A model generated the notes under the pieces. The model was given only the letters and a program-made list of their open reading frames with translations, made no database searches and was not told where the DNA came from. DNA of 64,000 nucleotides, taken from positions 44,857-108,856 of the forward strand of contig JBPOHW010000001.1 in the NCBI GenBank assembly GCA_052035095.1. The letters run 5' to 3'. A program made the translations under genes and the position numbers. Each line of letters starts with the position of its first letter. The first letter of the stretch is position 1. Below are positions 2,329 through 60,882 of the stretch, one piece after another. Source of the DNA: Candidatus Moraniibacteriota bacterium. GTDB taxonomy: Bacteria; Patescibacteriota; Minisyncoccia; Moranbacterales; UBA1568.

Positions 2329-2340
2329 GATGAAATATAA

Positions 2341-2476
2341 GCACCAAATTCAAAATTACAAGCTCCAAATAAATCTCAAATTCCAATTTTTAGAACAAAA
2401 CAATTTTTTTAGATGCCTCATTTAAATACTTGAGATTTGGCATTTATTTGGAACTTGAAATTTTGGATTTGGAATC
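2341..2476. repeat. family-1 palindromic intergenic element (about 135 bp, terminal inverted repeats gcaccaaattcaaaatt...aattttggatttgg), copy 1
   Basis: Left arm caccaaattcaaaattacaagctccaaataaatctcaaat. Right arm catttatttggaacttgaaattttggatttgg is its imperfect reverse complement. Same architecture at 7052, 42575, 53336 and 54166. Confidence 0.75.
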
Positions 2477-2488
2477 TTTTTTTGATTT

Positions 2489-7051: not shown

Positions 7052-7188
7052 AAATTCCAAATTCAAAATTTCAAGTTCCAAATAAATCTCAAATCTCAAT
7101 TTTCGAAACAAAATCATTTTTTCAAGCGTCTCTTTTGAATATTTGTTATTTGGTGCTTATTTGGAACTTGAAATTTTGAATTTGGTGC
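7052..7188. repeat. family-1 palindromic element, copy 2
   Basis: attccaaattcaaaatttcaagttccaaataaatctcaaat ... gcttatttggaacttgaaattttgaatttggtgc. Confidence 0.75.
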
Positions 7189-7193
7189 TTTTC

Positions 7194-29861: not shown

Positions 29862-30022
29862 CAAATGGTAAATTTCAAAATAATTTCAGAATTTCAAAAT
29901 TCAAAAATTATTTTATCATTTGAAATTTATCATTTAAAATTTTAACTTCCTTCCCCGCATAAGCTGAGGCATTCTCTCTTCTTTTTTTTGAGTGTCTTGC
30001 TTTTTTTGGGAAGCGTTTCCGT

Positions 30023-30715
30023 ATGAAAGAATTTGACAGCGCGGAAATTTCCCGCATCCTGGGCGTTTCATTCAACAATGTCGAGTATTTTCAGTCCGCG
30101 TTTACTCACCGATCGTATCTCAATGAGCACCGAAACTATCCGCTCGAACACAATGAGCGCCTTGAGTTTTTGGGGGACGCGGTTCTCGAGCTCGTGGTAA
30201 CGGAATATTTGTATCATCACTATCCCAATCCCGAAGGGGAGCTTACAAGCTGGCGCGCAGCGCTCGTCAATGGCGAGATGCTCTCGCGCGTCGGCGCCGA
30301 ACTCGACATCGAGCCCTTTCTTCTGATGAGTCGGGGCGAAGCGAAAGACACCGGGCGATCACGACAGTATCTCGTGGCGAACGCGATGGAGGCGATTATT
30401 GGCGCGCTCTATCTCGATCAGGGGTACGAAGCGGCAAAGGCGTTCATTCTTCGCGTTGTCGTCAGGCATCTTCCCGAGGTCTTCGAGCAAAAACTCTACG
30501 CGGATCCGAAAAGTCGATTCCAGGAAGAGGCGCAGACGCGACTCAGTATCACGCCGTCTTATCGCGTCCTTTCCGAGTTTGGTCCCGATCACGACAAACG
30601 ATTTACCGCCGGCGCGTACCTTGGAGATGACCTCGTCGCCGAGGGTGAAGGCGCCTCCAAGCAGGAGGCTCAGCGCGAATCCGCGAAAAATGCTTTGGAG
30701 AAAAAGGGGTGGTAA
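30023..30715 (+). CDS. rnc: ribonuclease III
   Basis: RNase III signature ERLEFLGDAVLELVVTEYLY, plus a dsRBD at the C-terminus. Confidence 0.9.
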   Translation: MKEFDSAEISRILGVSFNNVEYFQSAFTHRSYLNEHRNYPLEHNERLEFLGDAVLELVVTEYLYHHYPNPEGELTSWRAALVNGEMLSRVGAELDIEPFLLMSRGEAKDTGRSRQYLVANAMEAIIGALYLDQGYEAAKAFILRVVVRHLPEVFEQKLYADPKSRFQEEAQTRLSITPSYRVLSEFGPDHDKRFTAGAYLGDDLVAEGEGASKQEAQRESAKNALEKKGW

Positions 30716-30775
30716 GAAAAAATGCAGAATGAAAAATTCAAAATTGAAAATGAAAAGATACGGAAAATGCACTCT

Positions 30776-34279: not shown

Positions 34280-35617
34280 TCAGGATTCGGGAATATACCT
34301 CGAAAGTATTCGTTCCTTCAGTTTGGAAAGCATTCGAAATAACGAATCTTTACTCACGGATGTTTCAAAAGAAACGTCAAGCCTTCGAATATCGGTATCG
34401 GCGGGAACGTCAATTGAAAATTCATAGGTATCACCGTGAAACTCGCGGAGCGCCGCGAGCGGGATGGAGCATTCGAGGTAATACGAAGAAAGCGGAGAAA
34501 AACCCTCTTCCAACACGCATGAAGCTCTCGTTTGAAGCGACTCCGAGGAAACAAGGATCGGATGTCGATTGCCGAGCCATGCGTGAAGAATAGTTTCTCC
34601 TCGAATCTCTCGTTTTTTTCCTTCCTCGATGAGGAAGTACCGATTTTCTCTTGTGTCAAGCAACACGGTTCCATCCGGATGCGGCACGGATACATCGACG
34701 AATTTTCCTTTCGGCACGAGGCTGATTTCTTCGTCGTTTGCCGGACGAACATCGTCCCAGGAGTATCCGAGCGAAAGAAAAATGTCAACGCCGAGTATGG
34801 GTCGCGGAGACTCACCGTCCATCAGGAAAACGCCGTCGCCCCACGAAAGGAGCGAGCCGCTCGGGTAGCCGCGCCATTCATCTGAAACCGTTCGCGCGCG
34901 GATAAATGAAACGTCTCTCGGGAGCGCCCAGTTTTCCGGAAATCGAGCAAGAAACGATTCGCGACTCACAAAAGGGATGAGTTTGCCGTTTCGCCACTCG
35001 TAAAAAATACCGTCCGAATGAATAAATGACCCACTCGGCGGTTCATCGCCGGAAAATTCGACTGATCCGCCGTCTCGATGGAGAAGTAGCTCCTCGGATG
35101 AAGCGACAAGAAACACATTCGGATCGAACCCAAGAGACCTGACCGCATCTTCGGACGGGAAACGTTTTCTTGTTCCATTTGGGGCGATTTGAAAATAGTC
35201 TCCTCCGAATCGAAGGAGTGATCCCTTTGGAAAAGGAGCAAGGCTTCCTTCGGGATAGAGAAATGCCTTTTGTGAGCGCCGAATCGAGACACTTCCGCTT
35301 TCGAGCGCGCGCACCGAATCATCTCCCGAAACACCTATGATCGCGTTTGAGAAGTCCCCGAATATCGAGGCGTCAACAATAAGCATTTCGCTTTCGGCAA
35401 GTCGCCCGTTCCCGCGCGGGTCACCCGTATCGGTTCTCGGACTTTGGAGCGTGTTTCGTTCCGCTTTTGAGTTTTCAAAGTCGAAGACAAAATCGAATGA
35501 GGGAAAGAAGAGAGAAAAGGCAAACGTGAACATTCCAAAAAAGAAAATGGACCAAAGGATGACACGTCCCGTAATAAAAACAATATTCCAAAGTTTTGGT
35601 AGGGAGGAAGAGCTCAT
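34280..35617 (-). CDS. membrane-anchored extracytoplasmic protein (hypothetical)
   Basis: N-terminal TM then a 400-aa domain with no recognisable motifs. Its stop abuts the next gene's start. Confidence 0.5.
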   Translation of the reverse strand: MSSSSLPKLWNIVFITGRVILWSIFFFGMFTFAFSLFFPSFDFVFDFENSKAERNTLQSPRTDTGDPRGNGRLAESEMLIVDASIFGDFSNAIIGVSGDDSVRALESGSVSIRRSQKAFLYPEGSLAPFPKGSLLRFGGDYFQIAPNGTRKRFPSEDAVRSLGFDPNVFLVASSEELLLHRDGGSVEFSGDEPPSGSFIHSDGIFYEWRNGKLIPFVSRESFLARFPENWALPRDVSFIRARTVSDEWRGYPSGSLLSWGDGVFLMDGESPRPILGVDIFLSLGYSWDDVRPANDEEISLVPKGKFVDVSVPHPDGTVLLDTRENRYFLIEEGKKREIRGETILHAWLGNRHPILVSSESLQTRASCVLEEGFSPLSSYYLECSIPLAALREFHGDTYEFSIDVPADTDIRRLDVSFETSVSKDSLFRMLSKLKERILSRYIPES

Positions 35618-35641
35618 GGGGAGAGAATGAGGAATGAAGAA

Positions 35642-38750: not shown

Positions 38751-38826
38751 TACATTATGCGACAGTGTAGATATTCGAAAACACTCAAGCGCAAGCATTC
38801 CATTTTCCATTATTCCCCCTTCCCTC

Positions 38827-39177
38827 CTATCCCTGTTTCTTGAACCGGACAGCGAAGACGGGTTCGTATTTGTTGCCGTATTCGTCTACCGCCTCGACCG
38901 TTTTGCCATCCATCAAGGTCGTCATAGCCATATCGGTGAGCATTTCTTGATTTGCCTTGATTTCATCAGAGAGTTCTTCGTAGCGTTCATAGCGTTTGCC
39001 GAGCGAGTCCTTGGCTTTTTGTTCAAAGAGGGTCTTTTTTTCGCGCGCCTTCTCGAGTTCCTCGACCGCCTTCTCATAGTCGAGGTTTTGCACCAAGACA
39101 TCGCGGTATTCTTTCTTTATTTCCTTCTGTTCCTTTTTCATCTCCTGGATATGTTTGAAGAGTTCCTGCAATTCCAT
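38827..39177 (-). CDS. coiled-coil protein (hypothetical)
   Basis: MELQELFKHIQEMKKEQKEIKKEYRDVL..., 116 aa. The ORF extends to a GTG at 39267 that lies inside the repeated upstream element. Confidence 0.4.
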   Translation of the reverse strand: MELQELFKHIQEMKKEQKEIKKEYRDVLVQNLDYEKAVEELEKAREKKTLFEQKAKDSLGKRYERYEELSDEIKANQEMLTDMAMTTLMDGKTVEAVDEYGNKYEPVFAVRFKKQG

Positions 39178-39234: not shown

Positions 39235-39327
39235 AGTTGCCTCGACCAAGAAAAGACTTTTTCTCACATGCTCCTCTCTATCGGAGCAAACTTTCGAAAA
39301 ATTCTTTTCTTGGTCTCGGCGTGCATG
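39235..39327 (-). promoter_or_regulatory. conserved roughly 95-bp upstream element, copy 1 (18-bp inverted repeat around a core with GAGGAG-cATGTGA)
   Basis: agttgcctcgaccaagaaaagactttttctcacatgctcctctctatcggagcaaactttcgaaaaattcttttcttggtctcggcgtgcatg. Near-identical copy at 40101-40195. Confidence 0.5.
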
Positions 39328-39468: not shown

Positions 39469-40056
39469 CTACTTTTTCTCCGACTCCCCTTCTTTCTTCG
39501 CTTCTTCTTGTTTTTCTTCCATTTTCTTCCAGTGCGTAGCGTCTTTCATAAGGAGTTCACGGAGCGTTCCGGTTACGGAATAGGTATTCTTAATCCCGTC
39601 TTTGCGGAAAGAAAACTCTTGCGGGATGGCGCCCGGATTTCCGGCATAGAAGATTTGCTCCTTGCCGTTTTTTTCACGGATGGCGAGACGGATGCCTTCA
39701 TCTTTCGTCACGCCGAATTTTTTGAAGTTTTCCTCGTTTTTCGAGACCATTTCGCGAATTTCGAGCGTGGCAAATGCTTGGAAAAGCGCCGCTATCTTTT
39801 CCTTGTCAACGAGATCGGCGCCAATCTTCCAATCCTCTCCGAATTTCTCGAGCACGATTTCCTCCGCGTCCTTCTGTTTCATCGCGATACGATCGACGGA
39901 ATTCTCCGTGAAAACGTCGAGATTCACGCTGGTATTTGTCGATGGAGTCGTCTCACTCCCCTTCCCTGCGAAAAGATCGCCAATCCATGGGATGATGGCA
40001 AGTACCACGAGAATCAAGAAAATTCCCGACGCGACTTTGAGAAATGTATTATTCAT
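39469..40056 (-). CDS. membrane-anchored protein, probably the DUF4340-type partner of the GldG-like ABC system
   Basis: N-terminal TM then a soluble domain. Lies immediately downstream of the gldFG-like gene. Confidence 0.5.
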   Translation of the reverse strand: MNNTFLKVASGIFLILVVLAIIPWIGDLFAGKGSETTPSTNTSVNLDVFTENSVDRIAMKQKDAEEIVLEKFGEDWKIGADLVDKEKIAALFQAFATLEIREMVSKNEENFKKFGVTKDEGIRLAIREKNGKEQIFYAGNPGAIPQEFSFRKDGIKNTYSVTGTLRELLMKDATHWKKMEEKQEEAKKEGESEKK

Positions 40057-40100: not shown

Positions 40101-40195
40101 AGTTGCCTCGACTGCAAAAAATAATTTTTTTCACATGTTCCTCTCTATCGGAGCAAACTTGAAAAAAATTATTTTTTGCAGTCTCGGCGTGCATG
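40101..40195 (-). promoter_or_regulatory. conserved roughly 95-bp upstream element, copy 2
   Basis: agttgcctcgactgcaaaaaataatttttttcacatgttcctctctatcggagcaaacttgaaaaaaattattttttgcagtctcggcgtgcatg. Confidence 0.5.
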
Positions 40196-40221: not shown

Positions 40222-42522
40222 CTATTCTTCTTCACCATAGGCGAGGCGCTTCTTGCGACTCCTTCGGTACAGGCGGAAGACTCCGTATCCGGCGGGAACA
40301 AGGAGTGCAAACGCCATATTGCCAAATTTGAGGAGATTGGGTTCCGAGGGATTCCTAAAAGAGAATTTTCGCCCCGAAGCGTTCTTCGCGGTAATCGACC
40401 CCAGTGAAGACTCCTGTCCAAGCCAGGCGAGAGCTTCCAGTCCGAAAGAGAGATTGGCGGAATTATTCCCGACAAACTGATCGGTCAAAAAGTCCGAGTC
40501 TCCAACAATAACGCTCCGCCACGGTTTCCCTTCTTTGCTTGACGTAAGCGCGATAGCGAGGGTGCGCTTGCTGAGATCGGTTTGCGAGAATTTCTGATCC
40601 GGTTCGATCGAGAAATCGGCATCCTTCCTCCCTGCAAACGGAGTGGTTTCAAAGAGGCTTGTTTTTTCGTATCCCTTTTCCTTCAAAACCGAATCATTCG
40701 TCTCCACGCTACTCGGCCACGGAAGAGAAAGCTCATTCAAAGAGGCGGTAATCGGGGAGGCGCTTTCTATTTTTTGAGCACGCACCCAGAGCGGATAGGG
40801 CAATATATACTGCATTTGCCCGCCACCAAAGCTCACCGATTCATTGGCGCGAAGATCATAGACCATATCCTTTCCAATCGTGATGCCGGTTTCGGTTGCG
40901 AGAAAGTCGGCAAAGTCACTCGCGTTTTTCGAAGCGGTCATAACGCTCGGCGAAACCGTGACACCGTCAACAAGAAAGAGCGCGTTTCCTCCCTTCCCGA
41001 TGAAGTCGGTTATGGATTTCTTTTCTTCATCGGAGTAATTTTGATCCGGACCGGCAACAATAATCACCTTCACATCATCCGGTATGGTGAGGCGTTTTTT
41101 GGGTGGCATTTCCGGTTCCCCTTCTTTCTTTTTCTCTGAGGATTTCGCGGAGTCATCTTTCGCGATATCTTCCGCCGCGATTTCTTTTACCTCGAATTGC
41201 TTCCGCCATTCCTCGGAAATGCGACGATAATCCTGGAAGAGACTCTTTTCGCCGTGCCCGGAAATGAAACCGACTACCGGCTTGTTGTCGGTCGTGAGTT
41301 TTTTGAGGAAACTTGAGAGTTGATACTCGAGATCACGCGTGTTTTGTACAAAAGGAATGGTTTCGTGCTCGCCGCCATAGGAAACGACGATGCCGAGATA
41401 CCCTTCCTGGACCTGAAATTGTTCCTCTGAAACCGTGTTAAACCGGACCGCCTGCACGCCAAGCGATCGCGCTTCGCTCGCTATCTTTTCGTCCCCGAGC
41501 GGATTTTTTATGGCAAGCTGAACTTTTCCCTCGGCGAGCGTTCGATAATCGGCAAGCATATCTTTGACCTCTCGCATTGTCGGCTGGAACTCGGACGGCA
41601 AACGATCCGAGACGTAGAGCGTGATGTTTATAATATCGTCCGGAAGCCCCGAGAGAAGCGATTCGGTCGCCGGAGAGAGCGTGTAGAGTTTCTCTTCGGT
41701 CAAATCAAGACGCCCGGGAATACGCGATCCGACCACATTTGACACGACCGCAATGCCAAAAAGAAGGAAAATCGCCAGTCGGTACTGCTGATAGGTCTTC
41801 CGTTTATTGCCATACTTAATGCGGATGACATTGAGGAGCGCGACACCGAGAAAGACACCGGTAAACGATACAAAATACCACAGATCTCGTAGATCAACGA
41901 CACCTCGCGCAAGTGAGTTGAAGTGATTGTACGCCGAGAGTTGTTCGAGGAACGGCGCCAAAAAGAGCGGGAGGCGGGCGGTCGCGATTTCCATTCCCGA
42001 AATGATGAGAAAGAAACTGATTACGGCGGAAACGATAAAAGCGGTCACCTGACTCGCGACGAAGCTCGACACCGCGATGCCGAGACTGGAGAGCACCGAA
42101 GCGAGCAAAACGCCCCCGATATACTGCGCGATCATACGTCCCCAGTCCATATCTCCAAAAAAGCCGAAGCTCCACGCGATCGGAAACGCAAAAGCCGTGG
42201 CGATGGAGAAGAAAAACAGAATGCCAAGGAACTTCCCGAGAATGAGATCGGCCGGCCGTATCGGGCGTGTCAAGAGAAACTCGACGGTTCCCTCGCTCTT
42301 CTCCTCGGCGAGCGTCCCCATAGCGAGCGCCGGAATAACGAGGAGCGAGAGCCATGGCAAGAGTTCGAAAAGATTACGGACGGAGACTTCCCCGATCAAA
42401 AACACCTGCCGGAAAAACAAAAACTCCCACAAGAGAAGAAATGCCGCGATGATGATATAAGCGGTCGGATTGTTGAAATACGACTGTAACTCTTTTCGAA
42501 CAATAGTCAGTATGTTTTTCAT
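40222..42522 (-). CDS. fused ABC-2 permease (GldF-like) plus GldG-like extracytoplasmic domain protein
   Basis: N-terminal six-TM ABC-2 permease domain, then a roughly 500-aa GldG-type domain with a C-terminal TM. 766 aa. Confidence 0.8.
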   Translation of the reverse strand: MKNILTIVRKELQSYFNNPTAYIIIAAFLLLWEFLFFRQVFLIGEVSVRNLFELLPWLSLLVIPALAMGTLAEEKSEGTVEFLLTRPIRPADLILGKFLGILFFFSIATAFAFPIAWSFGFFGDMDWGRMIAQYIGGVLLASVLSSLGIAVSSFVASQVTAFIVSAVISFFLIISGMEIATARLPLFLAPFLEQLSAYNHFNSLARGVVDLRDLWYFVSFTGVFLGVALLNVIRIKYGNKRKTYQQYRLAIFLLFGIAVVSNVVGSRIPGRLDLTEEKLYTLSPATESLLSGLPDDIINITLYVSDRLPSEFQPTMREVKDMLADYRTLAEGKVQLAIKNPLGDEKIASEARSLGVQAVRFNTVSEEQFQVQEGYLGIVVSYGGEHETIPFVQNTRDLEYQLSSFLKKLTTDNKPVVGFISGHGEKSLFQDYRRISEEWRKQFEVKEIAAEDIAKDDSAKSSEKKKEGEPEMPPKKRLTIPDDVKVIIVAGPDQNYSDEEKKSITDFIGKGGNALFLVDGVTVSPSVMTASKNASDFADFLATETGITIGKDMVYDLRANESVSFGGGQMQYILPYPLWVRAQKIESASPITASLNELSLPWPSSVETNDSVLKEKGYEKTSLFETTPFAGRKDADFSIEPDQKFSQTDLSKRTLAIALTSSKEGKPWRSVIVGDSDFLTDQFVGNNSANLSFGLEALAWLGQESSLGSITAKNASGRKFSFRNPSEPNLLKFGNMAFALLVPAGYGVFRLYRRSRKKRLAYGEEE

Positions 42523-42574
42523 AGAGAGACTTCAATGTTCAGCAACAGAGGAAAGGTGTATACAGGTATCGTTT

Positions 42575-42628
42575 TGAATATTGTTATTTGAGATTTATTT
42601 GGAGCTTGGAATTTGATATTTGGAACTT
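42575..42628. repeat. family-1 palindromic element, short copy 3
   Basis: ttgttatttgagatttatttggagcttggaatttgatatttggaacttcc, lying between the ABC ATPase and permease genes. Confidence 0.55.
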
Positions 42629-42633: not shown

Positions 42634-43557
42634 TTATTCTTTTGTCAAAGCCTGGAAAATATCTTCGAGCTTGCGTTCTTCTTCGTGCATATCCCAGAGC
42701 ACCCAGTGTTTTTGCCAGGCGAGTTTTGAGATATCCGGGCGGATTTCCCGATCATGATCGAGTGAGAGTGTGCCGGAAACGCGATTCCCCGATTTCTTTT
42801 TGAGTGTGAGAGACTTTTCCCCCGCAAGGCGTTTCAATTCCGATTCAATTCCCTCCCCTTCAATATCAATCGAAATAATTTTTTCGCCAAGCGCTCGCGC
42901 GGAAAGCTCGCTCGCCGTCCCATCGGCCGCGAGCTTCCCTTTGTTGAGAATGAGCATCCGACCACACACGGCGGACGCTTCTTGCATAACATGGGTACTC
43001 ATAATAACCGTGTGTTTCTTGGCGAGATCTTTGATGAGTTCCCGGATCTCCCCTCGCTGAATGGGGTCGAGCCCCTCGGTCGGCTCATCCATAATGATGA
43101 TATCCGGATTGTGAATGAGCGCCGCGGCGATGCCCGTTCGCTGACGAAATCCCTTGGAGAGTTCGCCGATCGGGCGATAGTACATCTTCTCGATACCGAC
43201 CGCGCGCACGACGAAATCCGTCGCGGAGGCGCGTTTCGCGGGCGAAATCCGGTGGAGGCGCGCCGCGAGATCGAGAAACTCCGAAACCTGCATCGTCTTG
43301 TAGAGCGGATTGTTCTCGGGAAGATAACCGATTTTTTTCTGAACGGATACCGGATCTTTCTCGATATCGAGACCATCGATCGTAATCGTACCCCTATCCG
43401 GCGCGAGAAACCCGGTAATCATACGAAGCGTCGTCGTTTTGCCGGCGCCATTGGGTCCCAAGAAGCCGATCACTTCGCCCGAGTCGACCGAAAACGAAAG
43501 ATCATTCACCGCCTTCACTCGTCCAAAATATTTCGTCACGTTTTTGAGCGTAATCAT
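42634..43557 (-). CDS. ABC transporter ATP-binding protein (GldA-like)
   Basis: Walker A GPNGAGKTT, signature LSKGFRQR, Walker B IIIMDEPTEGLD. Confidence 0.85.
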   Translation of the reverse strand: MITLKNVTKYFGRVKAVNDLSFSVDSGEVIGFLGPNGAGKTTTLRMITGFLAPDRGTITIDGLDIEKDPVSVQKKIGYLPENNPLYKTMQVSEFLDLAARLHRISPAKRASATDFVVRAVGIEKMYYRPIGELSKGFRQRTGIAAALIHNPDIIIMDEPTEGLDPIQRGEIRELIKDLAKKHTVIMSTHVMQEASAVCGRMLILNKGKLAADGTASELSARALGEKIISIDIEGEGIESELKRLAGEKSLTLKKKSGNRVSGTLSLDHDREIRPDISKLAWQKHWVLWDMHEEERKLEDIFQALTKE

Positions 43558-45192: not shown

Positions 45193-45261
45193 ATAAGCTG
45201 ACACTCTGGGACGAAGTTGGAACGTATTTATTCGGGCTTCCTTACTGAAATTATCGCATAG
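45193..45261. repeat. repeat A (ataagctgacactctgggacgaagttggaacgtatttattcgggcttccttactgaaattatcgcatag)
   Basis: About 90% identical over 60 nt to repeat C at 47819-47884. Partial copy B at 47193-47231. Confidence 0.65.
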
Positions 45262-47134: not shown

Positions 47135-47192
47135 CATCCCAATAAAAAACCCTCTCAACCATGAGAGGGAACGAGAGAACAAAGGAAAATTC

Positions 47193-47231
47193 ATAAGCTG
47201 GGGCTGTGGGATAAAGTTGGAATATATTTGG
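47193..47231. repeat. repeat B (partial copy of A/C)
   Basis: ataagctggggctgtgggataaagttggaatatatttgg. Confidence 0.5.
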
Positions 47232-47355
47232 ATCGGTGTCCAACATTCATTGATTTGTTTGATTGTACGGTAAATTTTTGAAAAATAAAAACGACCTCTT
47301 GAGGCGGGTCGTAGTAGCGCTTGCGGATTGTAAGCGCAGCCTGTATGGAGAACAT

Positions 47356-47688
47356 CTATTTTATCGGCAATCGTTTATAGATATCATGAGGAAGAAACTC
47401 AAGTGCTATCGATTCCGGAACCCCTGCCTCAATGAGGTTTCTTACGATTCCGAGTGCGAGAGAGACAAGGTGCTGCACAGCGAATTTCCCGGGACCGATG
47501 CTGGAGAATGCACTGGCTCCATTGTCAGGTTGCATAATGGAAACATCAGCATTTTGAGAAAGCCACTCCGCATATTTGGGCGGTATTGTGACAGAAACCT
47601 CTTCATAAAAAGGATCCATGAGTCCAACATCTCTGACGCCGGTAACTTCGACGAGCGTATCTTCTATAATTTTCTCATAATCAAACAT
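47356..47688 (-). CDS. hypothetical protein
   Basis: 110-aa ORF; no motif recognised. Confidence 0.45.
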   Translation of the reverse strand: MFDYEKIIEDTLVEVTGVRDVGLMDPFYEEVSVTIPPKYAEWLSQNADVSIMQPDNGASAFSSIGPGKFAVQHLVSLALGIVRNLIEAGVPESIALEFLPHDIYKRLPIK

Positions 47689-47818
47689 GGCGCTTCTCCT
47701 TTTGGGTTGTTGAGGGACTTGTCCAAGTTGGACTCAACATGATAACAAATGGAATGCTTGGATGTCAATCCCGCGCTATGAAGGTTTCAAAGTAGCGCTT
47801 GTTTTTTTGCAGACACCG

Positions 47819-47884
47819 TAGCTGGGGCTGTGGGACGAAGTTGGAATGTATTTATTCGGGCTTCCTGCTGAAATTATCGCATAG
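47819..47884. repeat. repeat C
   Basis: tagctggggctgtgggacgaagttggaatgtatttattcgggcttcctgctgaaattatcgcatag. Confidence 0.65.
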
Positions 47885-48114
47885 GCTTGAGTTTTTTGCT
47901 ATCCATGATGGATTGCTTGCTAGTAAAGAGAAAGTTTCGACCCATTTTGTACAGAAATGCCTCTACAAAGCCACAAATGTTAATGGTCATTGACAGAAAT
48001 ATGATGATATGCTATATTTCTCAGTCATGGCGCGTCTATACCTAGACTCAAATCCATGACCCTCCCCGCAGGGTTTTGCGGCAATAGCACATTCCAAATT
48101 TGGGAGATAGAAAC

Positions 48115-48792
48115 ATGAGTATCTACGTCTACGAACCCTCTTGCGGTGAAAACATTGGTGAAACCGCGAAGAGGATGGCCATCTATGCCGTTACTGGTAG
48201 GGAGACGGTGACGGCGATGTTCAACGACATTCAACTCACTGCAAATCCCGGCGACAATGCTGACACAATCGTGCAGTATTATAACGCCGAGTGCGAACGC
48301 CGTCACGAGGAGTATGTCAACTCTTCGGAGTACAAGGAGAAACAACAGCAAGCCGAAGAAGCACGGCATCTTCACGAACTCATGCTTGAAGGCGCTTTAG
48401 CAGCGGCTCCCGAAAAAATGACGCTTCGAGACGAAGAGGGCTGGAAGAAAACAGTTGAGACGAACACCGACGGCTACGGTAGCGGAGTCATCCGTTTTGC
48501 TGAACGTTGGGCGCGTCTCATGGAGAGTCGTATCTCTAATGGCGACACCGTTGAAGGATGTGCCAAGGAAGCGTCCCATCTTGCCGATAATGAAGGCATC
48601 ACCGGCTTTATGTACGGGTGCGCCGTCTCTATCCTTTCGCAGGTGTGGGAATATGGTGAACAGCTTCGCCGTTGGCACAACCTCTCGACTCAACTCGGAA
48701 ACGAGGGCGAGAAAGCCAATGAAAATGGCAGTACGCTTAACCCAGCTCTCTTGTGCATTGGTCAATCTGATAACAACGACAGTGCGCAATAA
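48115..48792 (+). CDS. hypothetical protein (element cargo)
   Basis: ATG at 48115 with GGGAGA 7 nt upstream. 225 aa. Followed by a terminator hairpin. Confidence 0.5.
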   Translation: MSIYVYEPSCGENIGETAKRMAIYAVTGRETVTAMFNDIQLTANPGDNADTIVQYYNAECERRHEEYVNSSEYKEKQQQAEEARHLHELMLEGALAAAPEKMTLRDEEGWKKTVETNTDGYGSGVIRFAERWARLMESRISNGDTVEGCAKEASHLADNEGITGFMYGCAVSILSQVWEYGEQLRRWHNLSTQLGNEGEKANENGSTLNPALLCIGQSDNNDSAQ

Positions 48793-48823
48793 GTAACGCG
48801 GACTTCGTGAATCAGTGAATCAC

Positions 48824-48865
48824 GAGACTCCTTGCAGATAACAATTCTGCTTGGAGTCTTTTTCT
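48824..48865 (+). terminator. terminator hairpin
   Basis: gagactccttgcagataacaattctgcttggagtctttttct. Confidence 0.5.
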
Positions 48866-49147
48866 ATATCAATGTCCAGAATTTGACAAATGTCAATTTC
48901 TGATATAGCGTGTCCTTGGAAACTTAAAAACCGAATCCATTCCCTCGTCGCTATACTGTGCCAGCGACCTTCTATAAATTACACTACACACATTACACGT
49001 CTTTACCTATACACATTTTTTTTCAATAACATTCACAAAAACATTCAAAACATTACCAAGGGCACTTCAATCATTACATTTGGGAAAACCTTGTCCAGAT
49101 TGAAGCCTACGCAGTGTTTTTGAGTATTTTTGATACTAATCACCAGA

Positions 49148-49180
49148 AAACCGACTTCAATCTGAAGGTCGGTTTTTTTG
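49148..49180 (+). terminator. rho-independent terminator
   Basis: aaaaccgacttcaatctgaaggtcggttttttt. Confidence 0.6.
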
Positions 49181-49208
49181 TTTCCCGAAATTATTGAGTT
49201 TCGGGAAC

Positions 49209-49502
49209 ATGACACAGGTATTTAGCCAAACACTTCGAAACCAAATCAAAGCGTACTTTGAAAAACGCCACTCTTTAACAATTTCCGACAACAAAGCCGA
49301 CGAATATTTGCATTCATTGGATGGTTTGTGTTCGGCACTCGGTACCCGTTCTCCTGTGGCTTCCGGTGAAACAAGGTTTCCGAAGGAAACCTACAGGGGC
49401 ACCCGCATTTCCCGAGTGCGGGTCAAGGTGGAGGCGCCGAAGGCGCACGACCTTGACGCGCCAGCGAGGGAAATGCAAGCACCCGGTGTTCCTCTCTCTT
49501 AA
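49209..49502 (+). CDS. small hypothetical protein upstream of rep (possible regulator or RDF)
   Basis: MTQVFSQTLRNQIKAYFEKRHSLTISDNKADEYLHSLDGL... The C-terminal half is Arg-rich and doubtful. Confidence 0.3.
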   Translation: MTQVFSQTLRNQIKAYFEKRHSLTISDNKADEYLHSLDGLCSALGTRSPVASGETRFPKETYRGTRISRVRVKVEAPKAHDLDAPAREMQAPGVPLS

Positions 49503-49535
49503 CTTGATTCTAAACACACATCTACAGAATTTCGT

Positions 49536-50322: not shown

Positions 50323-51792
50323 ATGAAATACATCCTCTACGCCCGAAAGTCCACAGAACAGGAAGAACGCCAAGCGATGTCCATCGAGTCGCAGGAAAAC
50401 GAAATGGTGCGTCTCGCGGAAAAGTCGGGGATTCGCATTGAGAAAACCTACAAAGAAAGCATGTCGGCGAAACAAACAGGACGACCCATTTTCAATGAAA
50501 TGCTGGACTCTCTCGGAAAGAACAAAGACTGCGTTGTATTCGCATGGAAACCCGACCGTCTTTCACGAAACATCATTGACGGCGGAAAACTGGTCGAACT
50601 TCTTGAAAGAGGAAATATCAAAGAAATTCGGACGATTGATAAAGTCATCACCGACAACCCGACGGACAAGTTTATGCTTCTCCTTGACTTCGGCGTGGGC
50701 AAGAAATATTCCGACGACCTTTCCGTGAATGTGAAACGAGGCAATCGCGCCAAACTTGAAAAAGGAGGATGGCCGGGGATTGCCCCTCTCGGGTATCTCA
50801 ATGACAAACTCAACAAAACCATCGTCGTTGACGAAGAACGCGCGCTGTATATTAAAAAAGCATTCGAACTCTACGCTATGGGAGGAAAAAGCGTCATGGA
50901 GGTGGCGAATGTTCTCTATGAGAGAGGCTTCCGTTCGCGGACGGGTCAGAAAATACACAAAAGCAAAATTCACACGATACTCTCCGACCCGTTTTACTCC
51001 GGCATGATGAAACGGAACGACGTAGTGTACCAAGGAAAACATGAACCGATAGTCTCTCACGAACTTTTCGAGAAAGTCCAAGACGTACTCTTTCGGAGAA
51101 TACACACCAAAATGCAAACGCTGTTCTTTCCGCTTCGGGGATATATCAAGTGCGGAAGCTGTGGTTGCGCGTTTACCGCAAGCCGCAAAAAAGGACACGA
51201 TTATTACTACTGCACCAACGGCAAGGGACAGTGCGAGGAACACAAGCGGTATATGCGTTCCGAGAAGATGGAAACACTTATTTCAACCGTCTTTGATGAA
51301 ATATCTTTTGACGAAGAACTCATCGAACTTGCCTACCTCGCACAAAAGGAAAGAGGAAAACACGACGAGACCTACAAAGAAGCCTCGCGCGAGACCATCG
51401 TCAAGAAGCTAGAATTTGTCTCACGGAAGGAGTCGAGGCTTCTCGAGAGTTATCTGTCCGAACTCATTCCGCAAGACGTGTACGAGGCAAAAACGAAGGA
51501 ATTGCACAACGAAAAAGAAACCTTGAACGCGCAACTTCAAAAAAGCGACCAAATGTTTGGGAACGGACTCTGTACTTTGGAACATTTGAAAAACGTGTTT
51601 TTGACCGCTAATAGAACCAAAAGTGAATTTCTCAATGCGCCGAATGAGAAAAAAGCGAAGGTGCTGGAAACAGTACTTTGGAACCTTGAAATACGAAACG
51701 GAGAAATGGCTTCGGTACGCTACAAAATGCCGTATGAGATACTCAAAAAGTCGCCCAAAAACGGCGACTTTTCTACAATGCTGGGGTGCTAG
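50323..51792 (+). CDS. large serine recombinase (integrase)
   Basis: N-terminal resolvase domain YARKSTEQEERQAMSIESQ (catalytic Ser), a recombinase domain, and a zinc ribbon CGSCGC...YYYCTNG. The last four codons (MLGC-stop) overlap the 3' end of tRNA-Gln. Alternative start at 50296. Confidence 0.8.
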   Translation: MKYILYARKSTEQEERQAMSIESQENEMVRLAEKSGIRIEKTYKESMSAKQTGRPIFNEMLDSLGKNKDCVVFAWKPDRLSRNIIDGGKLVELLERGNIKEIRTIDKVITDNPTDKFMLLLDFGVGKKYSDDLSVNVKRGNRAKLEKGGWPGIAPLGYLNDKLNKTIVVDEERALYIKKAFELYAMGGKSVMEVANVLYERGFRSRTGQKIHKSKIHTILSDPFYSGMMKRNDVVYQGKHEPIVSHELFEKVQDVLFRRIHTKMQTLFFPLRGYIKCGSCGCAFTASRKKGHDYYYCTNGKGQCEEHKRYMRSEKMETLISTVFDEISFDEELIELAYLAQKERGKHDETYKEASRETIVKKLEFVSRKESRLLESYLSELIPQDVYEAKTKELHNEKETLNAQLQKSDQMFGNGLCTLEHLKNVFLTANRTKSEFLNAPNEKKAKVLETVLWNLEIRNGEMASVRYKMPYEILKKSPKNGDFSTMLGC

Positions 51793-51851
51793 GATTCGAA
51801 CCTAGGATCATGGGACCAGAACCCATTGCCTTACCGCTTGGCTACACCCCA
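51781..51851 (-). tRNA. tRNA-Gln (anticodon CUG)
   Basis: Reverse complement UGGGGUGUAGCCAAGCGGUAAGGCAAUGGGUUCUGGUCCCAUGAUCCUAGGUUCGAAUCCUAGCACCCCAG folds as a cloverleaf. Anticodon loop is UUCUGGU and the T-loop is GGUUCGAAUCC. Closely resembles bacterial tRNA-Gln. Confidence 0.8.
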
Positions 51852-52111
51852 ATAATCTCTAACTCTTCCAAGATATCACGTAATTGTTGCTTTAAGAATC
51901 GCTTCCCTTCAGTTGTCTTCAAATAACGTTCCCGCCTTTCGGCATCACTTTTCTTGAGATACGCTTCGTAATGAATAAGCTTCACTGGCAATCTCGTGCT
52001 CGTAAAATCAGCATTTCCCTCATGATGCTCTGCAATTCTTCTTTTCAAATCGCTTGTATAGCCAGTATAAAGTTGTTTGTTGTTGAGAAGAAGAATGTAT
52101 ACGTAGAACAT
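51842..52111 (-). CDS. GIY-YIG nuclease superfamily protein (small, about 90 aa)
   Basis: MFYVYILLLNNKQLYTGYTSDLKRRIAEHHEG is the GIY-YIG motif. The stop overlaps the tRNA 5' end by about 10 nt. Confidence 0.6.
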   Translation of the reverse strand: MFYVYILLLNNKQLYTGYTSDLKRRIAEHHEGNADFTSTRLPVKLIHYEAYLKKSDAERRERYLKTTEGKRFLKQQLRDILEELEIIGV

Positions 52112-52178
52112 ACAGAAAAATACAGCAAAGGAAGGATTCGCCATGTCATTCGACATGGCGCCCCGTCGGATGACGGGG

Positions 52179-52233
52179 CGAACCTAGGATCATGGGACCA
52201 GAACCCATTGCCTTACCGCTTGGCTACACCCCA
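52179..52233 (-). repeat. 55-nt duplicate of the 5' part (nt 1-55) of tRNA-Gln
   Basis: cgaacctaggatcatgggaccagaacccattgccttaccgcttggctacacccca is identical to 51797-51851. Confidence 0.75.
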
Positions 52234-52295
52234 AGAATATTTTAATTGCCTTACCCGCCTCGACTCGTTGAAGCTCATCTTCGGCGAGGCGGGCC

Positions 52296-52312
52296 ACTTG
52301 GCTACACCCCAA
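52296..52312 (-). repeat. third short copy of the tRNA-Gln 5' end plus flank
   Basis: cttggctacaccccaagaat, compared with 52218-52238. Confidence 0.5.
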
Positions 52313-52394
52313 GAATTTTTCAAAAGAAAAGGGAGGACGCGATGCCCTTCCCGGATAATAGCCAAAAATTGAGGAAAAATCAAGGTGATTCGCG

Positions 52395-53324
52395 CTATAT
52401 CTTCATATAGCGACGGACGGCGAGGAAGCCGCTCAAGGAGCCGATGAAAATACCAAGGGTAAACAGAATAAGGAAAATCCAAAAAAGATTGGCAGTGAAT
52501 GATCCCATAAGGCCGGTTCCCTCGATCATACTTCGCGTAAAGGGATTGAAACGCTGGAAGGAAATGTAGGCGTAGAGAAACACTACCGATACGAGAGAGG
52601 CGATACTTCCGTAGAGAATGCCTTCGACGACGGAGGGGGTGCGCACGTAGAGATTTGACGCGCCGACCAAGCGCATAATCTCAAAGTCTTCGCGTCTGGA
52701 AAACATCGTGAGGCGAATGGTATTGAACGTGACGAGAAACGCGATAAGGAGGAAGATAACACCGAGAATCGCTCCCTGCCGGATCACTTCGCGATTTATG
52801 GCGGTGAGCTGATTTATGATAGACTCATTCTCTCGATAGTTGAGACGGAAAATATCGTTTCTAAATGAGGACTGTTCGATGGCGTCGTTGATGACACGAT
52901 ATTCTTCCGGCGTCCGTGCCTTGATCGAGAGCGAGGCGTAGAGCGGATTCTCACCGATTTCTTCGAGCGCCTGTTCGATCACGTCTTTATTTCCCGCCGC
53001 TTCGCTCTGCGCGCGGAACTTTTCGAGTGCCGTTTCGCGAGAGGTATAGGAAATATCTCGAATTTCGCGATATTTCTTCAACTCGGACTGAATGGCGAGG
53101 ATACGTTCTTCGCTCACGTCCGCATCAAACGACACAGTGATATCCATTTTTTCCTCGAGATTTTTCAGAATGGACCGCGTCGCCAACGCTTCGACACCCG
53201 CGAGCCCGATTACAAAAAGCGCGAGCGCGATTGTCAGAATGGCGGACACCGAGAGCCAGCCGCTCCGCACAAAACTTCGCCCTCCCTCTCGAATCGCCCT
53301 GATAAGTTTTATTCCTTTTGGCAT
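52395..53324 (-). CDS. ftsX: cell division ABC permease-like protein FtsX
   Basis: N-terminal TM, large periplasmic loop, three C-terminal TM segments. Confidence 0.85.
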   Translation of the reverse strand: MPKGIKLIRAIREGGRSFVRSGWLSVSAILTIALALFVIGLAGVEALATRSILKNLEEKMDITVSFDADVSEERILAIQSELKKYREIRDISYTSRETALEKFRAQSEAAGNKDVIEQALEEIGENPLYASLSIKARTPEEYRVINDAIEQSSFRNDIFRLNYRENESIINQLTAINREVIRQGAILGVIFLLIAFLVTFNTIRLTMFSRREDFEIMRLVGASNLYVRTPSVVEGILYGSIASLVSVVFLYAYISFQRFNPFTRSMIEGTGLMGSFTANLFWIFLILFTLGIFIGSLSGFLAVRRYMKI

Positions 53325-53335
53325 AAAAGTAAACC

Positions 53336-53469
53336 AAGCACCAAATTCAAAATTCCAAGCTCCAAATAAATATCAACTCTCAATACTCAAAAACGTACAA
53401 AAAATGTTTCTGCTTGATATTTGTATTTTGATGCTTATTTGGAACTTGTGATTTGATTCTTGAAATTTT
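53336..53469. repeat. family-1 palindromic element, copy 4 (between ftsE and ftsX)
   Basis: aagcaccaaattcaaaattccaagctccaaataaatatcaa ... gcttatttggaacttgtgatttgattcttgaaatttt. Confidence 0.7.
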
Positions 53470-53474
53470 ATTCT

Positions 53475-54155
53475 TCACACTATATATTTTCCCTCCTTTT
53501 CGTCGCGCGCGATAGTACCGCCGGCAAGGGTGACGACGCGCTTCTCGAGACTGTCCACGATGGGTTTGTTGTGGGTCGCGAGGAGCACGGTCGTTCCCAT
53601 GCTGTTGATTTCAAGGAGGAGGCGGATAATGTCTTGGGCGGAAGCGGGATCGAGATTTCCGGTCGGCTCGTCGGCAATGAGGACGGAAGGGCGATGGATG
53701 AGCGCGCGCGCCAGAGAGACTCGTTGTTGCTCGCCGCCGGAGAGTTGCTTAGGATAGTTATTCGCCTTGTCGAGGAGGCGCACGATTTCCAAAATTTGCG
53801 GCACTTCCTCGGCGATTTCCGCCGTCGTTTTCCCGTCGATTTCGAGCGCGTAGGCGATATTTTCAAACACGGTCCGTTGCGAGAGGAGTTTGAAATCTTG
53901 AAACACGGTACCGAAATTGCGCCGATAGTACGGAAGAAGTCGCCGCTTGATGGTTCCGATCGATCGGTCACCAAAAAATATCTCGCCCGCCGTCGGCTCT
54001 TCTTCGGCATAGATGAGCTTGAGGAGCGTCGACTTCCCCGCCCCGCTCTGCCCCACAAACGACACAAACTCCCCCGGCTCGATCATCAGATTGAGATCTT
54101 TCAACACCAGCACATCACCCGGATAAATTTTGGTCACATTTTCAAAACGAATCAT
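53475..54155 (-). CDS. ftsE: cell division ATP-binding protein FtsE
   Basis: Walker A GQSGAGKST, signature LSGGEQQR, Walker B LIADEPTGNLD. Confidence 0.9.
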   Translation of the reverse strand: MIRFENVTKIYPGDVLVLKDLNLMIEPGEFVSFVGQSGAGKSTLLKLIYAEEEPTAGEIFFGDRSIGTIKRRLLPYYRRNFGTVFQDFKLLSQRTVFENIAYALEIDGKTTAEIAEEVPQILEIVRLLDKANNYPKQLSGGEQQRVSLARALIHRPSVLIADEPTGNLDPASAQDIIRLLLEINSMGTTVLLATHNKPIVDSLEKRVVTLAGGTIARDEKEGKYIV

Positions 54156-54165
54156 AAAGGAGAAG

Positions 54166-54289
54166 AAAATTTCAAATTCAAAATTACAAGTTCCAAATAA
54201 GCACCAAATAACAAACAGGGATTCTTTAAGACGTTTTTAACATTGAGATTTTGAAATTTATTTGGAACTTGTCATTTTGAATTTGGTGC
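54166..54289. repeat. family-1 palindromic element, copy 5 (between prfB and ftsE)
   Basis: aaaatttcaaattcaaaattacaagttccaaataagcacc ... gaaatttatttggaacttgtcattttgaatttggtgc. Confidence 0.7.
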
Positions 54290-54302
54290 TTACACTTCCA
54301 CA

Positions 54303-55380
54303 TTACATTCTCAAAAAGGCTTCCATGAATTCATCGAGTTTACCATCCAGCACTTCATAGACCTGTGGGGTTTCATATTTTGTCCGGTGATCTTTGACAA
54401 GCGTATAGGGGTGGAGGACATAGGAGCGAATCTGGCTTCCGAAATCCGCGCTTTTTTGTTCACCGCGGAGCGCACGTTTCTCGTCTTCTTCCGACTGGAG
54501 TCGCTGTTGCTCGAGCTTGGCGCGGAGCATCGTCATCGCGGTTTCCTTGTTCTGGAGCTGGGAACGTTCAGTTTGACACGAAACGACAATGCCGGTCGGA
54601 ATATGCTTGATACGGACGGCAGTCTCGGTCTTGTTGACATTTTGTCCACCCGCGCCCGAGGATCGATAGGTTCCCACTTCCAAATCTTCTGATCGCACTT
54701 CAACACCCTCTTTGGCGGACAGCACCGGCAGAACCTCCACCGACGCAAACGAGGTCTGTCGCAAATGATCCGCATTGAAGGGCGAGAGCCGGACTAGGCG
54801 GTGCGTCCCCATTTCACTGCGGAGATATCCGTAGGCATAGTCACCATCAATCTCGATCGCGACACTCTTGATACCCGCCTCATTCCCTCTCGATTCTTCA
54901 AGAACCTGCGCCCGAAACCCGCGCCGCTCGGCCCACCGAAGATACATCCGGAGAATCATCTCCGCCCAGTCCTGCGCGTCCACTCCCCCAGCGCCACTCT
55001 TTATTGCGAGGATCGCGCTGTGGCGGTCGTAGGTCCCGCCAAGGCGAGTCTTGAACTCAAGCGCCGCAATCTCCCCTTGAACGCGCGCGTACTGCCTCTC
55101 GACATCGCTCGCTTCCTGCCCCTCGAGTCCCATCTCGGAGAGCTCTCGAATATCATCCAGTTCTTTCGCGAGCCGCTCAAACAAATTCCTCTCCGAGCGA
55201 AGCGCCTCAAGCTCCTTCATCACCTGCCCGGCTTCTTGGGTATCGTTCCAAAAATTCTCCGCCCGCGAAAGCGCCTCGAGCTCGGCAACTTTCTGCCCCT
55301 TCCCGGCAACGTCAAAGAGAGTCCCGCAAATGCAGGAGTTTACTGGCAAGCGTCTCAACCGAATTTCGAATGTCATTCAT
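54303..55380 (-). CDS. prfB: peptide chain release factor 2 with programmed +1 frameshift, join(55380..55315, 55313..54303)
   Basis: SPF and GGQ ([16 protein letters not shown]) motifs. Frame 0 reads [22 protein letters not shown] then CTT TGA C, the canonical RF2 autoregulatory shift site. The +1 frame continues [15 protein letters not shown]... Confidence 0.85.
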
Positions 55381-55484
55381 AGCGCAATGATATCATAGAA
55401 TTTCTTTTCTTGAAAATATCGCCCGCGCGTCTTGATTTTTCTGCTCACCTCGCCTACACTACGCTCTGTAACAAGAGAAGAAAA

Positions 55485-55557
55485 GCCACCTTAGCTCAGT
55501 TGGTAGAGCGGCACACTCGTAACGTGCAGGTCTGCGGTTCGATCCCGCAAGGTGGCT
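55485..55557 (+). tRNA. tRNA-Thr (anticodon CGU)
   Basis: GCCACCUUAGCUCAGUUGGUAGAGCGGCACACUCGUAACGUGCAGGUCUGCGGUUCGAUCCCGCAAGGUGGCU is a cloverleaf with anticodon loop CUCGUAA. Confidence 0.85.
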
Positions 55558-56094: not shown

Positions 56095-56156
56095 CCCTCA
56101 TCAGAGTCTTTTCCTCTCATCAGAGTCTCTCGAAGAGGACTCTGATGAGGGAAAGG
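56095..56156. repeat. family-2 hairpin element, copy 1 (12-bp stem ctcatcagagtc / gactctgatgag)
   Basis: ccctcatcagagtcttttcctctcatcagagtctctcgaagaggactctgatgagggaaagg. Other copies at 57654 and 60789. Confidence 0.65.
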
Positions 56157-57640: not shown

Positions 57641-57653
57641 AAAGCTCTATTTT

Positions 57654-57698
57654 CTCCTCGTCAGAGTCTCTCGCAGAGGACTCTGACGAGGAAAGGAG
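57654..57698. repeat. family-2 hairpin element, copy 2
   Basis: ctcctcgtcagagtctctcgcagaggactctgacgaggaaaggag. Confidence 0.6.
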
Positions 57699-60784: not shown

Positions 60785-60788
60785 TCTC

Positions 60789-60882
60789 ACCCCCGTCAGA
60801 GTATCTCGAAGAGGACTCTGGCGATTGAAGGCGAACATCCTCCAATTTCCATCAGACTCCCTACGGAGACTCCGACGAGAAA
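60789..60882. repeat. family-2 hairpin element, copy 3 (degenerate, duplicated)
   Basis: cccccgtcagagtatctcgaagaggactctggcgattgaagg ... catcagactccctacggagactccgacgag. Confidence 0.5.

Follow-up and report, generated by a model that had tools for sequence, protein, structure and literature searches.

The 64,000-nt stretch of a Candidatus Moraniibacteriota genome analyzed here (the window; positions 44,857 to 108,856 of contig JBPOHW010000001.1, assembly GCA_052035095.1) carries five related sequences in the gaps between its genes. We consider it probable that they are copies, four full and one half, of a non-coding and non-autonomous palindromic family that has recently entered short spacers and is tolerated there. 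As the same family provides an intervening sequence (IVS) in what we take to be helix 45 of a 23S ribosomal RNA (rRNA), and versions whose loop carries an S23p gene, the window copies are best called 'IVS-type' elements that lack the open reading frame (ORF) and are located outside rRNA. The family is a new one. Because its termini are sharp and it lacks a target-site duplication (TSD), it is similar to the repetitive extragenic palindromes (REPs) and their hairpin doublets (REPINs) rather than to a classical miniature inverted-repeat transposable element (MITE).

The copies in the window

The repeats had been noticed in a sequence-only reading of the window, and three approaches recovered them where that reading had placed them. 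The arm pattern, allowing up to 3 mismatches, had 8 matches in the window versus 0.00 expected from 100 dinucleotide-preserving shuffles. A repeat finder, applied independently, put the five loci in one group (direct families D1 and D2, inverted pairs I4, I12 and I18). Finally, a hidden Markov model (HMM) of the arm, trained solely on other genomes, detected 9 significant arms in the window, with E values from 6e-13 to 3e-5. One Logan contig matched, and was identical to the window along its 1181 nt.

What had been described as five copies of about 135 bp are four full copies of 125-139 nt and one half element, the copy noted at 42575, which consists of the right arm alone (a 'singlet'). Each element takes up nearly the entire gap between the stop codon of one gene and the ATG of the next. 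Pfam matches and ORF context agree with the earlier statement that every copy lies between two genes of the minus strand, and this applies to all five. The elements, with the genes at their stop and ATG sides, are the following.

2339..2477: copy 1, full palindromic element of 139 nt, GCACC end at the left; UPF0047 gene 2489-2956 (minus) at the stop side, tmk 1627-2328 (minus) at the ATG side (Pfam)
7052..7190: copy 2, full palindromic element with a 30-bp perfect stem, GGTGC end at the right; 698-aa ORF 7194-9290 (minus) at the stop side, 124-aa ORF 6661-7035 (minus) at the ATG side, both proteins without a Pfam match
42566..42628: half element, arm HMM E value 8e-10, no fold; between an ABC ATPase gene, 42634-43557 (minus), and a gene with ABC-2 permease/auxiliary domains, 40222-42522 (minus) (Pfam)
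53336..53468: copy 4, full element, right arm degenerate and with a 1-nt deletion; flanked by ftsE (stop at 53475) and ftsX (ATG at 53324)
54167..54291: copy 5, full element, inverted pair of 28 nt, 96% complementary; flanked by prfB (stop at 54303) and ftsE (ATG at 54155)
52395..55376 (minus): the string prfB (54303-55376), ftsE (53475-54155) and ftsX (52395-53324), split by copies 4 and 5 (Pfam)
30023..30715 (plus): rnc, RNase III with a double-stranded RNA-binding domain (Pfam)

The four full copies are predicted to fold into long hairpins from either strand (free energy, dG, -28 to -46 kcal/mol; z -3.9 to -9.0), with about 30 bp of near-perfect pairing followed by a longer imperfect stem. 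The half element at 42566-42628 does not fold (z +1.1 to +1.5). The inverted repeats are also less regular than first described. They are perfect in copy 2 only (30 bp), the remaining arms being about 77-96% complementary, and in place of termini of the type GCACC...GGTGC we found GCACC/GGTGC at a single end and AATTY at the opposite one, the side switching among copies. A short T run follows one end of the element, e.g., GGAATTTTTTT in copy 2. Scanning the window against Rfam at the gathering threshold returned two tRNAs only, i.e., the elements are covered by no known RNA family, and a promoter and terminator consensus scan of positions 52300-55500 gave no signal in the elements above the shuffle expectation. 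Shorter derivatives had been proposed as well, downstream of nusB, in miaA and in the gap from rnc to proS. With arm HMM E values of 0.5-9 (29874-29905, 25113-25130 and 30734-30745) these are AT-rich heptamer-type sequences and not demonstrable members of the family.

The prfB-ftsE-ftsX junctions in relatives

Among the FtsX proteins with a named source the closest ones were labeled as Moranbacteria or Patescibacteria and were about 41-50% identical; further relatives were graded from 94% to 56%. We have compared the two junctions occupied by copies 4 and 5 with those in contigs of relatives whose FtsX was 78-94% identical, as follows (stretches from other genomes carry L numbers, FtsX identities in brackets).

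prfB/ftsE, window: 147 nt including the element
prfB/ftsE, L100 (86%): 2 nt
prfB/ftsE, L105 (79%): 4 nt
prfB/ftsE, L101 and L102 (82%): 123-nt palindrome of GAATNAA heptads
prfB/ftsE, L103 and L104 (78%): insert of 98-102 nt
prfB/ftsE, L186 (88%): GC-type palindrome, 162 nt
prfB/ftsE, L188 (83%): palindrome, 137 nt
ftsE/ftsX, window: 150 nt including the element
ftsE/ftsX, L101: 15 nt
ftsE/ftsX, L103: 29 nt
ftsE/ftsX, L100 and L186: (GGTTGTC)n, 53 nt
ftsE/ftsX, the 94% relative: 55 nt, from gene coordinates only
ftsE/ftsX, L105 and L188: unrelated palindromes

Since the same junctions of the relatives are either empty (2-55 nt) or hold unrelated palindromes, the two window inserts are recent, lineage-specific and dispensable, and the prfB/ftsE and ftsE/ftsX spacers are hot spots for several unrelated palindromes. 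A comparison with relatives that lack the insert had been suggested from the start, and its outcome, together with the sharp termini and the occurrence in 44 assemblies described below, favors the original idea of mobile insertions tolerated within operons.

In the 86% relative (L100, 5075-7316), what comes after ftsX is an integrated element, missing at that position in the window, which codes for a large serine recombinase (Resolvase/Recombinase/Zn_ribbon_recom) and for a replication protein of the REP_ORF2-G2P type.

Anatomy and termini of the family

A set of relatives of the window copies was obtained by scanning the 28-nt arm pattern against species-representative genomes, in stretches of 8 kb. 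It comprised 55 full copies of 103-148 nt, reaching 251 nt when another GC-rich repeat was nested in the loop. The arm is about 60 nt long and is a run of units of about 7 nt, xRATTTG / CAAATYx, in which the TTTG blocks are conserved and the intervening 2-3 nt are variable. The autocorrelation of the arms reached 0.54 for a lag of 7 and 0.51 for one of 14, versus 0.36 in shuffled sequences. The elements end in AARYN...NRYTT, with ATTTGK-NRYTT as the general terminus, and the information content, computed over 172 arms, falls off from 1.9 bit to some 0.1 bit at exactly 5 nt past ATTTGK. No TSD was detected among the lengths tested (1-8 nt), direct repeats of at least 3 nt being found at the boundaries of 0 of the 55 copies, with 1.8 expected for k=3. 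Besides the 55 inverted doublets there were 65 unpaired arms, some of them with degenerate partners, and in L038 tandem arrays. The description 'REP-like' given in the sequence-only reading fits the lack of TSDs, the inverted doublets plus singlets and the sharp termini. 'MITE-like' can be kept in a loose sense only, given the missing direct repeats and the lack of a recurrently adjacent transposase.

By a crude ORF call, the gene context was co-directional in 35 cases, divergent in 10 and convergent in 5, and the orientation of the copies relative to transcription was random. The mismatches of the stems were not biased toward G·U on the mRNA strand (112, versus 118 A·C). Only about 6 of the 55 copies were located in a pre-existing hairpin, as judged by extension of the stem into the flanks (overall p about 0.07), and 4 of these were nested in a second palindrome of Falkowbacteria. 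Around some 170 arms (99 loci plus the window) we found no transposase or recurrent neighbor within 400 nt, nor, in the 8-kb stretches, any autonomous partner combining the same termini with a transposase. The genes near the arms were of housekeeping families (glycosyltransferases, ABC ATPases, LigA and GatA/C), apart from spurious ORFs running through the repeats. No Y1/HUH gene of the type of the REP-associated tyrosine transposases (RAYTs) appeared among the scanned window ORFs or the recurrent neighbors, in a search that was not exhaustive.

Nesting occurs both ways. An outer palindrome, GGAGGGGGTGATTAAT..., was found to enclose the element, and the element's own loop was found to hold other hairpin repeats rich in GC (L011, L033, L074 and L080, from Falkowbacteria RIFOXYA2_FULL_38_12; L042, L073, L092 and L097, from a metagenome-assembled genome (MAG) labeled Brocadiaceae; and L043). 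A longer repeat in the Brocadiaceae-labeled MAG was considered as an autonomous element or group II intron and discarded, for Rfam found no intron and the Pfam neighbors were all housekeeping genes; the region is a non-coding composite repeat that includes the arm and is present on many contigs.

Copies in 23S rRNA, around S23p genes and inside ligA

A link with 23S rRNA intervening sequences and with genes of the S23p/four-helix-bundle type, absent from the earlier reading, came from three kinds of locus. In L084 a full copy with the termini of the family lies within the 23S rRNA gene. The Rfam alignment indicates an insertion in a hairpin loop of the large subunit RNA, at model positions 1206-1226, directly 5' of GGUAGGAGAGCGUUC. 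From the E. coli numbering, along with PMC4990558, we take this site to be helix 45, the classical place of IVSs. Another copy abuts the 3' end of the 23S gene in L023. The family therefore includes an rRNA IVS, while the copies of the window, located in mRNA spacers, are not IVSs in the strict sense.

The second kind of locus carries a gene. In L052 the order is left arm, an ATG within the element, an ORF of 124 aa and a degenerate right arm, and the product matches PF05635, the 23S rRNA intervening-sequence protein. A PF05635 gene was also found beside arms of the same family as the window copies in L086 and L038 and, among loci from metagenomes, in L106, L107, L108 and L114; the gene lies between the arms in L052, L086 and L106 and in none of the window copies. 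The motif CAATGACCAAAAT, which supplies the start codon of the ORF in L052, is retained in many copies without ORF.

The third kind is found within a protein gene. The ligA gene of L076 contains three half-units in frame that code for linkers of the type NSKSQITNKSQIQNSK. In the LigA ortholog of L053 the first two are missing, with an unrelated insert at the first site, and the third has diverged. The clean case is an insert of 66 nt without TSD. The copy in 23S rRNA suggests that the rRNA inserts, long a puzzle, are part of a wider class of repeats found also between and inside protein genes.

Two inserts of other kinds were seen in these loci. Nearer the 5' end of the 23S gene of L084, the one carrying the helix-45 copy, there is a second and unrelated inverted-repeat insert (2075-2242), with arms of 42 nt, 74% complementary, and 84 nt between them. 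The ligA gene of L053 (6107-7999, minus strand) contains an in-frame palindrome, perfect and rich in GC, at columns 479-492 of the codon alignment, GTTTCACCCCTACGGCGTAGGGGTGAAAC, translated as VSPLRRRGETP and not present in the LigA ortholog of L076; it resembles the Rickettsia palindromic elements and is of a different family.

The association between PF05635 genes and heptamer arms goes beyond this family. All the PF05635 genes of the first locus set (7/7) lie between inverted arms of tandem heptamers, which belong to differing sequence families. A metagenome scan, with alignment of the PF05635 proteins, gave 80 loci, 76 of which could be tested for complementarity of the flanks. The region of the gene start and that past the stop form a duplex of dG -36.1 versus -22.1 for permuted pairs, and 30 of the 76 loci were past the 5% quantile of the permuted flank pairs. 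The arms are visible arrays of heptamers (GAATGAC, GCGGAAA, CTAATTA, CAAATGT, AATTGCG and others), with a lag-7 signal in the flanks of 0.47 versus 0.32 after shuffling. PF05635 protein similarity and k-mer sharing of the arms were correlated (Spearman 0.29). By blastn with the 23S of L084, none of the 80 loci lies in an rRNA gene.

A broader proposal, which we advance tentatively and which may well turn out to be wrong, is that rRNA IVSs are only the conspicuous part of an extensive class of palindromes, mobile and made of tandem heptamers. The complete form would carry an S23p/Avd-like gene in the loop, the protein would recognize the heptamer arrays, and ORF-less derivatives would have spread to spacers, hairpin loops and coding regions in Patescibacteria and other phyla. 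If true, the window copies would be ORF-less derivatives of S23p-bearing heptamer palindromes. Our literature search for MITEs or palindromes in the Candidate Phyla Radiation (CPR) and for a general link between S23p and heptamers retrieved the Coxiella IVS paper alone, and it yielded no description of this architecture outside rRNA.

Distribution among genomes

The exact 28-nt arm pattern was present in 98 stretches from 44 assemblies with GC contents of 30-58%, a set that does not include the species of the window. The CPR labels among the carriers are Saccharibacteria, Falkowbacteria, Buchananbacteria, Moranbacteria, Uhrbacteria, Magasanikbacteria, Staskawiczbacteria, Nomurabacteria, Jacksonbacteria and Microgenomates. 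There are also MAGs recorded as Brocadiaceae, Phycisphaeraceae, Planctomycetota, Lentisphaerae, Gammaproteobacteria and Bdellovibrionales. The carrier assemblies have tens of copies per genome. The arm pattern had no matches in IMG/VR viral contigs, nor had a full copy by blastn against phage and plasmid collections.

Several of these data weigh against a family of mobile elements that has spread recently. For the hosts outside the CPR, the taxonomy is that of the record labels of the MAGs. Arm identity was 0.756 within an assembly and 0.701 between assemblies, and the nearest neighbor of an arm came from the same assembly in just 55 of 140 cases, although the arms had been picked by similarity to the consensus, which biases this comparison. 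As arms of one assembly are almost as diverged as those of different ones, the divergence is not like that expected of a recent burst from one master copy, and it could reflect constraint on the TTTG blocks instead of purely selfish spread. As to a mobility enzyme, no transposase or recurring neighbor was found in about 100 loci, and nothing in viral contigs, phages or plasmids. Finally, the direction of descent could be either: an S23p element may have lost its ORF, or the loop of a palindrome may have gained one by insertion; loops of family palindromes do take other inserts.

Putative fate of the copies within operons

The copies would have recently entered a compact genome of Patescibacteria, in spacers that are very short. 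Their insertion was presumably tolerated because it broke no coding sequence and because there was no Shine-Dalgarno (SD) site near the start codon to destroy. Being within operons, they would be transcribed as part of the mRNA and fold there into hairpins of about 50 bp, which probably would be cut by the RNase III coded by rnc at 30023-30715, by analogy with rRNA IVSs. Such a cleavage would part the cistrons harmlessly, leaving an upstream transcript that ends in a stem and a downstream transcript that is still translatable, which fits with most genes here having no SD motif upstream. A useful model for the probable effect on the transcript is found in the Correia/NEMIS elements of Neisseria (NEMIS, Neisseria miniature insertion sequences) and in the enterobacterial repetitive intergenic consensus/intergenic repeat units (ERIC/IRU) of enterobacteria and Yersinia. 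They are palindromes of about 100-150 nt co-transcribed with the flanking genes, and their folded RNA is an RNase III target that changes the fate of the mRNA. The inserts in the operons of the window are most likely neutral passengers and not a conserved regulatory device.

The SD motif is almost never present before the start codons of the window (e.g., 15848, 19600, 34280-35617, 39469-40056 and 45447), and the 5-10 nt preceding the ATG are rich in C/T (ccccT ATG, ctctcccc ATG, ttttcct ATG). The near absence of SD motifs and the C/T-rich sequence suggest non-SD translation initiation in this lineage of Patescibacteria. The GGTG end of the element was considered as an SD site and rejected, because the spacing is too long and genes here are generally without such motifs.

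The origin and mobility of rRNA IVSs, and the role of the S23p/four-helix-bundle ORF, a relative of Avd, the accessory protein of diversity-generating retroelements, have been questions since about 1990. A single family that appears as helix-45 IVS, S23p palindrome, operon hairpin and in-frame insert makes the origin of IVSs testable by comparative genomics and simple biochemistry. As for the CPR, even streamlined genomes of about 1 Mb show a rapid turnover of palindromic repeats, both where the genes of an operon meet and within core enzymes, with consequences for annotation, for binning and assembly (the repeats are common to assemblies labeled as several phyla) and for the interpretation of operons.

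Alternative explanations

It is improbable, in our opinion, that the elements are cis-regulatory RNAs of the host, i.e., attenuators, terminators, stabilizers or programmed RNase III sites tuning prfB, ftsE, ftsX and the other flanking genes. Such a function would explain why all window copies are between co-directional genes and flush with stop and start codons, why the hairpins are strong and why a T run follows one end; RNase III is encoded within the window, and the TTTG blocks are conserved across phyla. However, the elements are missing from the same junctions in relatives with FtsX 79-94% identical, their orientation switches among copies, and G·U pairs on the sense strand are no commoner than A·C. 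The absence of strand and G·U bias argues against a selected RNA function. To this can be added the varied gene contexts, with divergent and convergent pairs, the in-frame half-units of ligA and the lack of terminator-like sites in the consensus scan. The attenuator or processing role put forward in the sequence-only reading is thus disfavored by random orientation, mismatch counts, context and in-frame copies alike.

We give a similarly low probability to a true REPIN, moved by a RAYT (tyrosine/HUH transposase) coded by one gene per genome. Much is shared with REPs, the mosaic elements that they build (BIMEs) and the REPINs of Proteobacteria: the intergenic position, often in operons, the absence of TSD, the hairpin doublets together with decayed singlets and clusters, and the tens of copies per genome. 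But the arms here are heptad runs of about 60 nt and REP units have 20-40 nt, no Y1/HUH gene was seen in the tested window ORFs or beside the elements (with the limits of that search already given), and the same arm is found in assemblies labeled as different phyla. REPs usually have a 5' tetranucleotide of the GTAG type, and REPIN-RAYT pairs are vertically inherited.

Improbable too is a classical MITE, in which the elements would be internally deleted copies of an insertion sequence, moved in trans by a DDE transposase through the terminal inverted repeats. The long inverted repeats, small size, AT richness, multiple copies, sharp ends and presence/absence polymorphism would be as expected. 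Against it, there is no TSD of 3-8 nt, neither a full-length partner nor a transposase accompanies any of the approximately 170 arms, singlets and tandem arms are common, and the sole ORF found within arms codes for a four-helix-bundle protein with no known catalytic activity.

Least likely of all is that nothing moved, and that heptamer microsatellites of the spacers became palindromic by template switching, arising convergently. The 7-nt periodicity, the high divergence within genomes, the heptamer runs of other window spacers (e.g., GTAGYGA at 10273-10310 and ATTCTTC at 35618-35660) and the fact that, in one clade, the same two spacers contain five or more unrelated sequences of heptamer or palindromic type would agree. 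But convergence is implausible for an exact 28-nt pattern that in 44 assemblies has identical termini and unselected flanks that are conserved, and likewise for a family unit that appears between genes, within ligA and in a helix of rRNA.

Comparison with known elements

The family resembles most the IVSs of 23S rRNA (helices 25 and 45; Salmonella, Leptospira, Coxiella). They have in common the terminal inverted repeats, the long stem with a variable loop, the tandem heptamers, the optional S23p/four-helix-bundle ORF in the loop and the sporadic distribution, besides the family copy in a 23S helix-45 loop. In Coxiella, the IVS has a terminal stem of 28 bp (about 30 bp near-perfect here), an S23p ORF and tandem GACAGAT heptamers variable in number, and is excised by RNase III; the origin and function of IVSs are described as unclear (PMC4990558). 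S23p is a homopentamer according to a study cited in PMC4990558. Different from IVSs, most members of the family, the window copies among them, lie outside rRNA, either between protein genes or, as half-units, within them, and the literature searched treats IVSs as features of rRNA and not as a dispersed repeat family.

The Correia/NEMIS and ERIC/IRU elements have no sequence similarity to those found here. Correia elements have a TA duplication and promoter and integration host factor (IHF) sites, whereas here we found no TSD and no promoter or terminator signal above background. Rickettsia palindromic elements are similar in their in-frame insertion in protein genes, here seen as the 66-nt half-units of L076 LigA. 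They differ in that just half-units are in frame here, in the free-living or episymbiotic CPR hosts and in their unrelated sequences. The short tandemly repeated repetitive sequences (STRRs) of cyanobacteria, made of heptanucleotides, and the Nezha-type MITEs are also intergenic and built of tandem heptamers. STRRs are simple tandem arrays, while the elements here are well-defined palindromes, about 130 nt long and with termini that are fixed, and a link of STRRs or Nezha with an S23p gene is not reported in the literature searched.

Two other systems were considered and rejected. Integron attC sites belong to arrays of promoterless cassettes beside intI, and each cassette has at its end an imperfect palindrome whose cores are RYYYAAC/GTTRRRY; the genes here are core genes in conserved order (prfB-ftsE-ftsX in relatives) and the termini are AARYN/NRYTT. 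An array of the TIGR type (tandem interspaced guide RNA) was discarded because the copies are solitary and dispersed between housekeeping genes. TIGR arrays have tandem units with box C/D motifs and dual spacers, beside a Tas gene with a Nop domain (PMC12045711).

Other repeats in the window

Several spacers and 5' leaders of the window contain runs of other heptamers (10273-10310, 25062-25084, 28894-28940, 35618-35660, 15785-15847 and 11702-11724). These are GTAGYGA/TCRCTAC, ATTCTTC/GAATGAG and TTTTCAT, some of them forming inverted pairs at distant loci (I17, I22); the building blocks are of the same type as those of the arms, from other families. In miaA (24267-25313, minus strand), an (AAAATTC)n run at 25105-25141 is read in frame as MKNSKFKIQN, within some 27 residues that are extra to the IPP transferase Pfam profile (arm HMM E=1.2, membership in the family unproven).

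A tRNA-Gln gene (51780-51851) is followed by a GIY-YIG ORF (51842-52156, minus strand) and by extra copies of the 3' part of the tRNA at 52179-52238 (98% identity) and 52294-52323. The region 51780-52323 looks like a small GIY-YIG element inserted into or next to a tRNA gene.

A second palindromic family, unrelated and richer in GC, TTTTCCTCTCATCAGAGTCTCTCGAAGAGGACTCTGATGAGGGAA, is located at 56109-56153, 57650-57694 and 60785-60829, with a weak copy at 38819-38863. A repeat of 58 nt is found at 39251-39308 and 40118-40175 with 86% identity, the latter with palindromic flanks (40105-40188). It has a conserved CACATGYTCCTCTCTATCGGAGCAAACTT inside an A/T palindrome, and may represent a small RNA or else a site of regulation. 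Lastly, a 47-nt motif, AGCTGRSRCTSTGGGAYRAAGTTGGAAYRTATTT..., has three copies (45196-45242, 47196-47242 and 47820-47866) in large non-coding stretches, in a region with few long ORFs (47135-49535).

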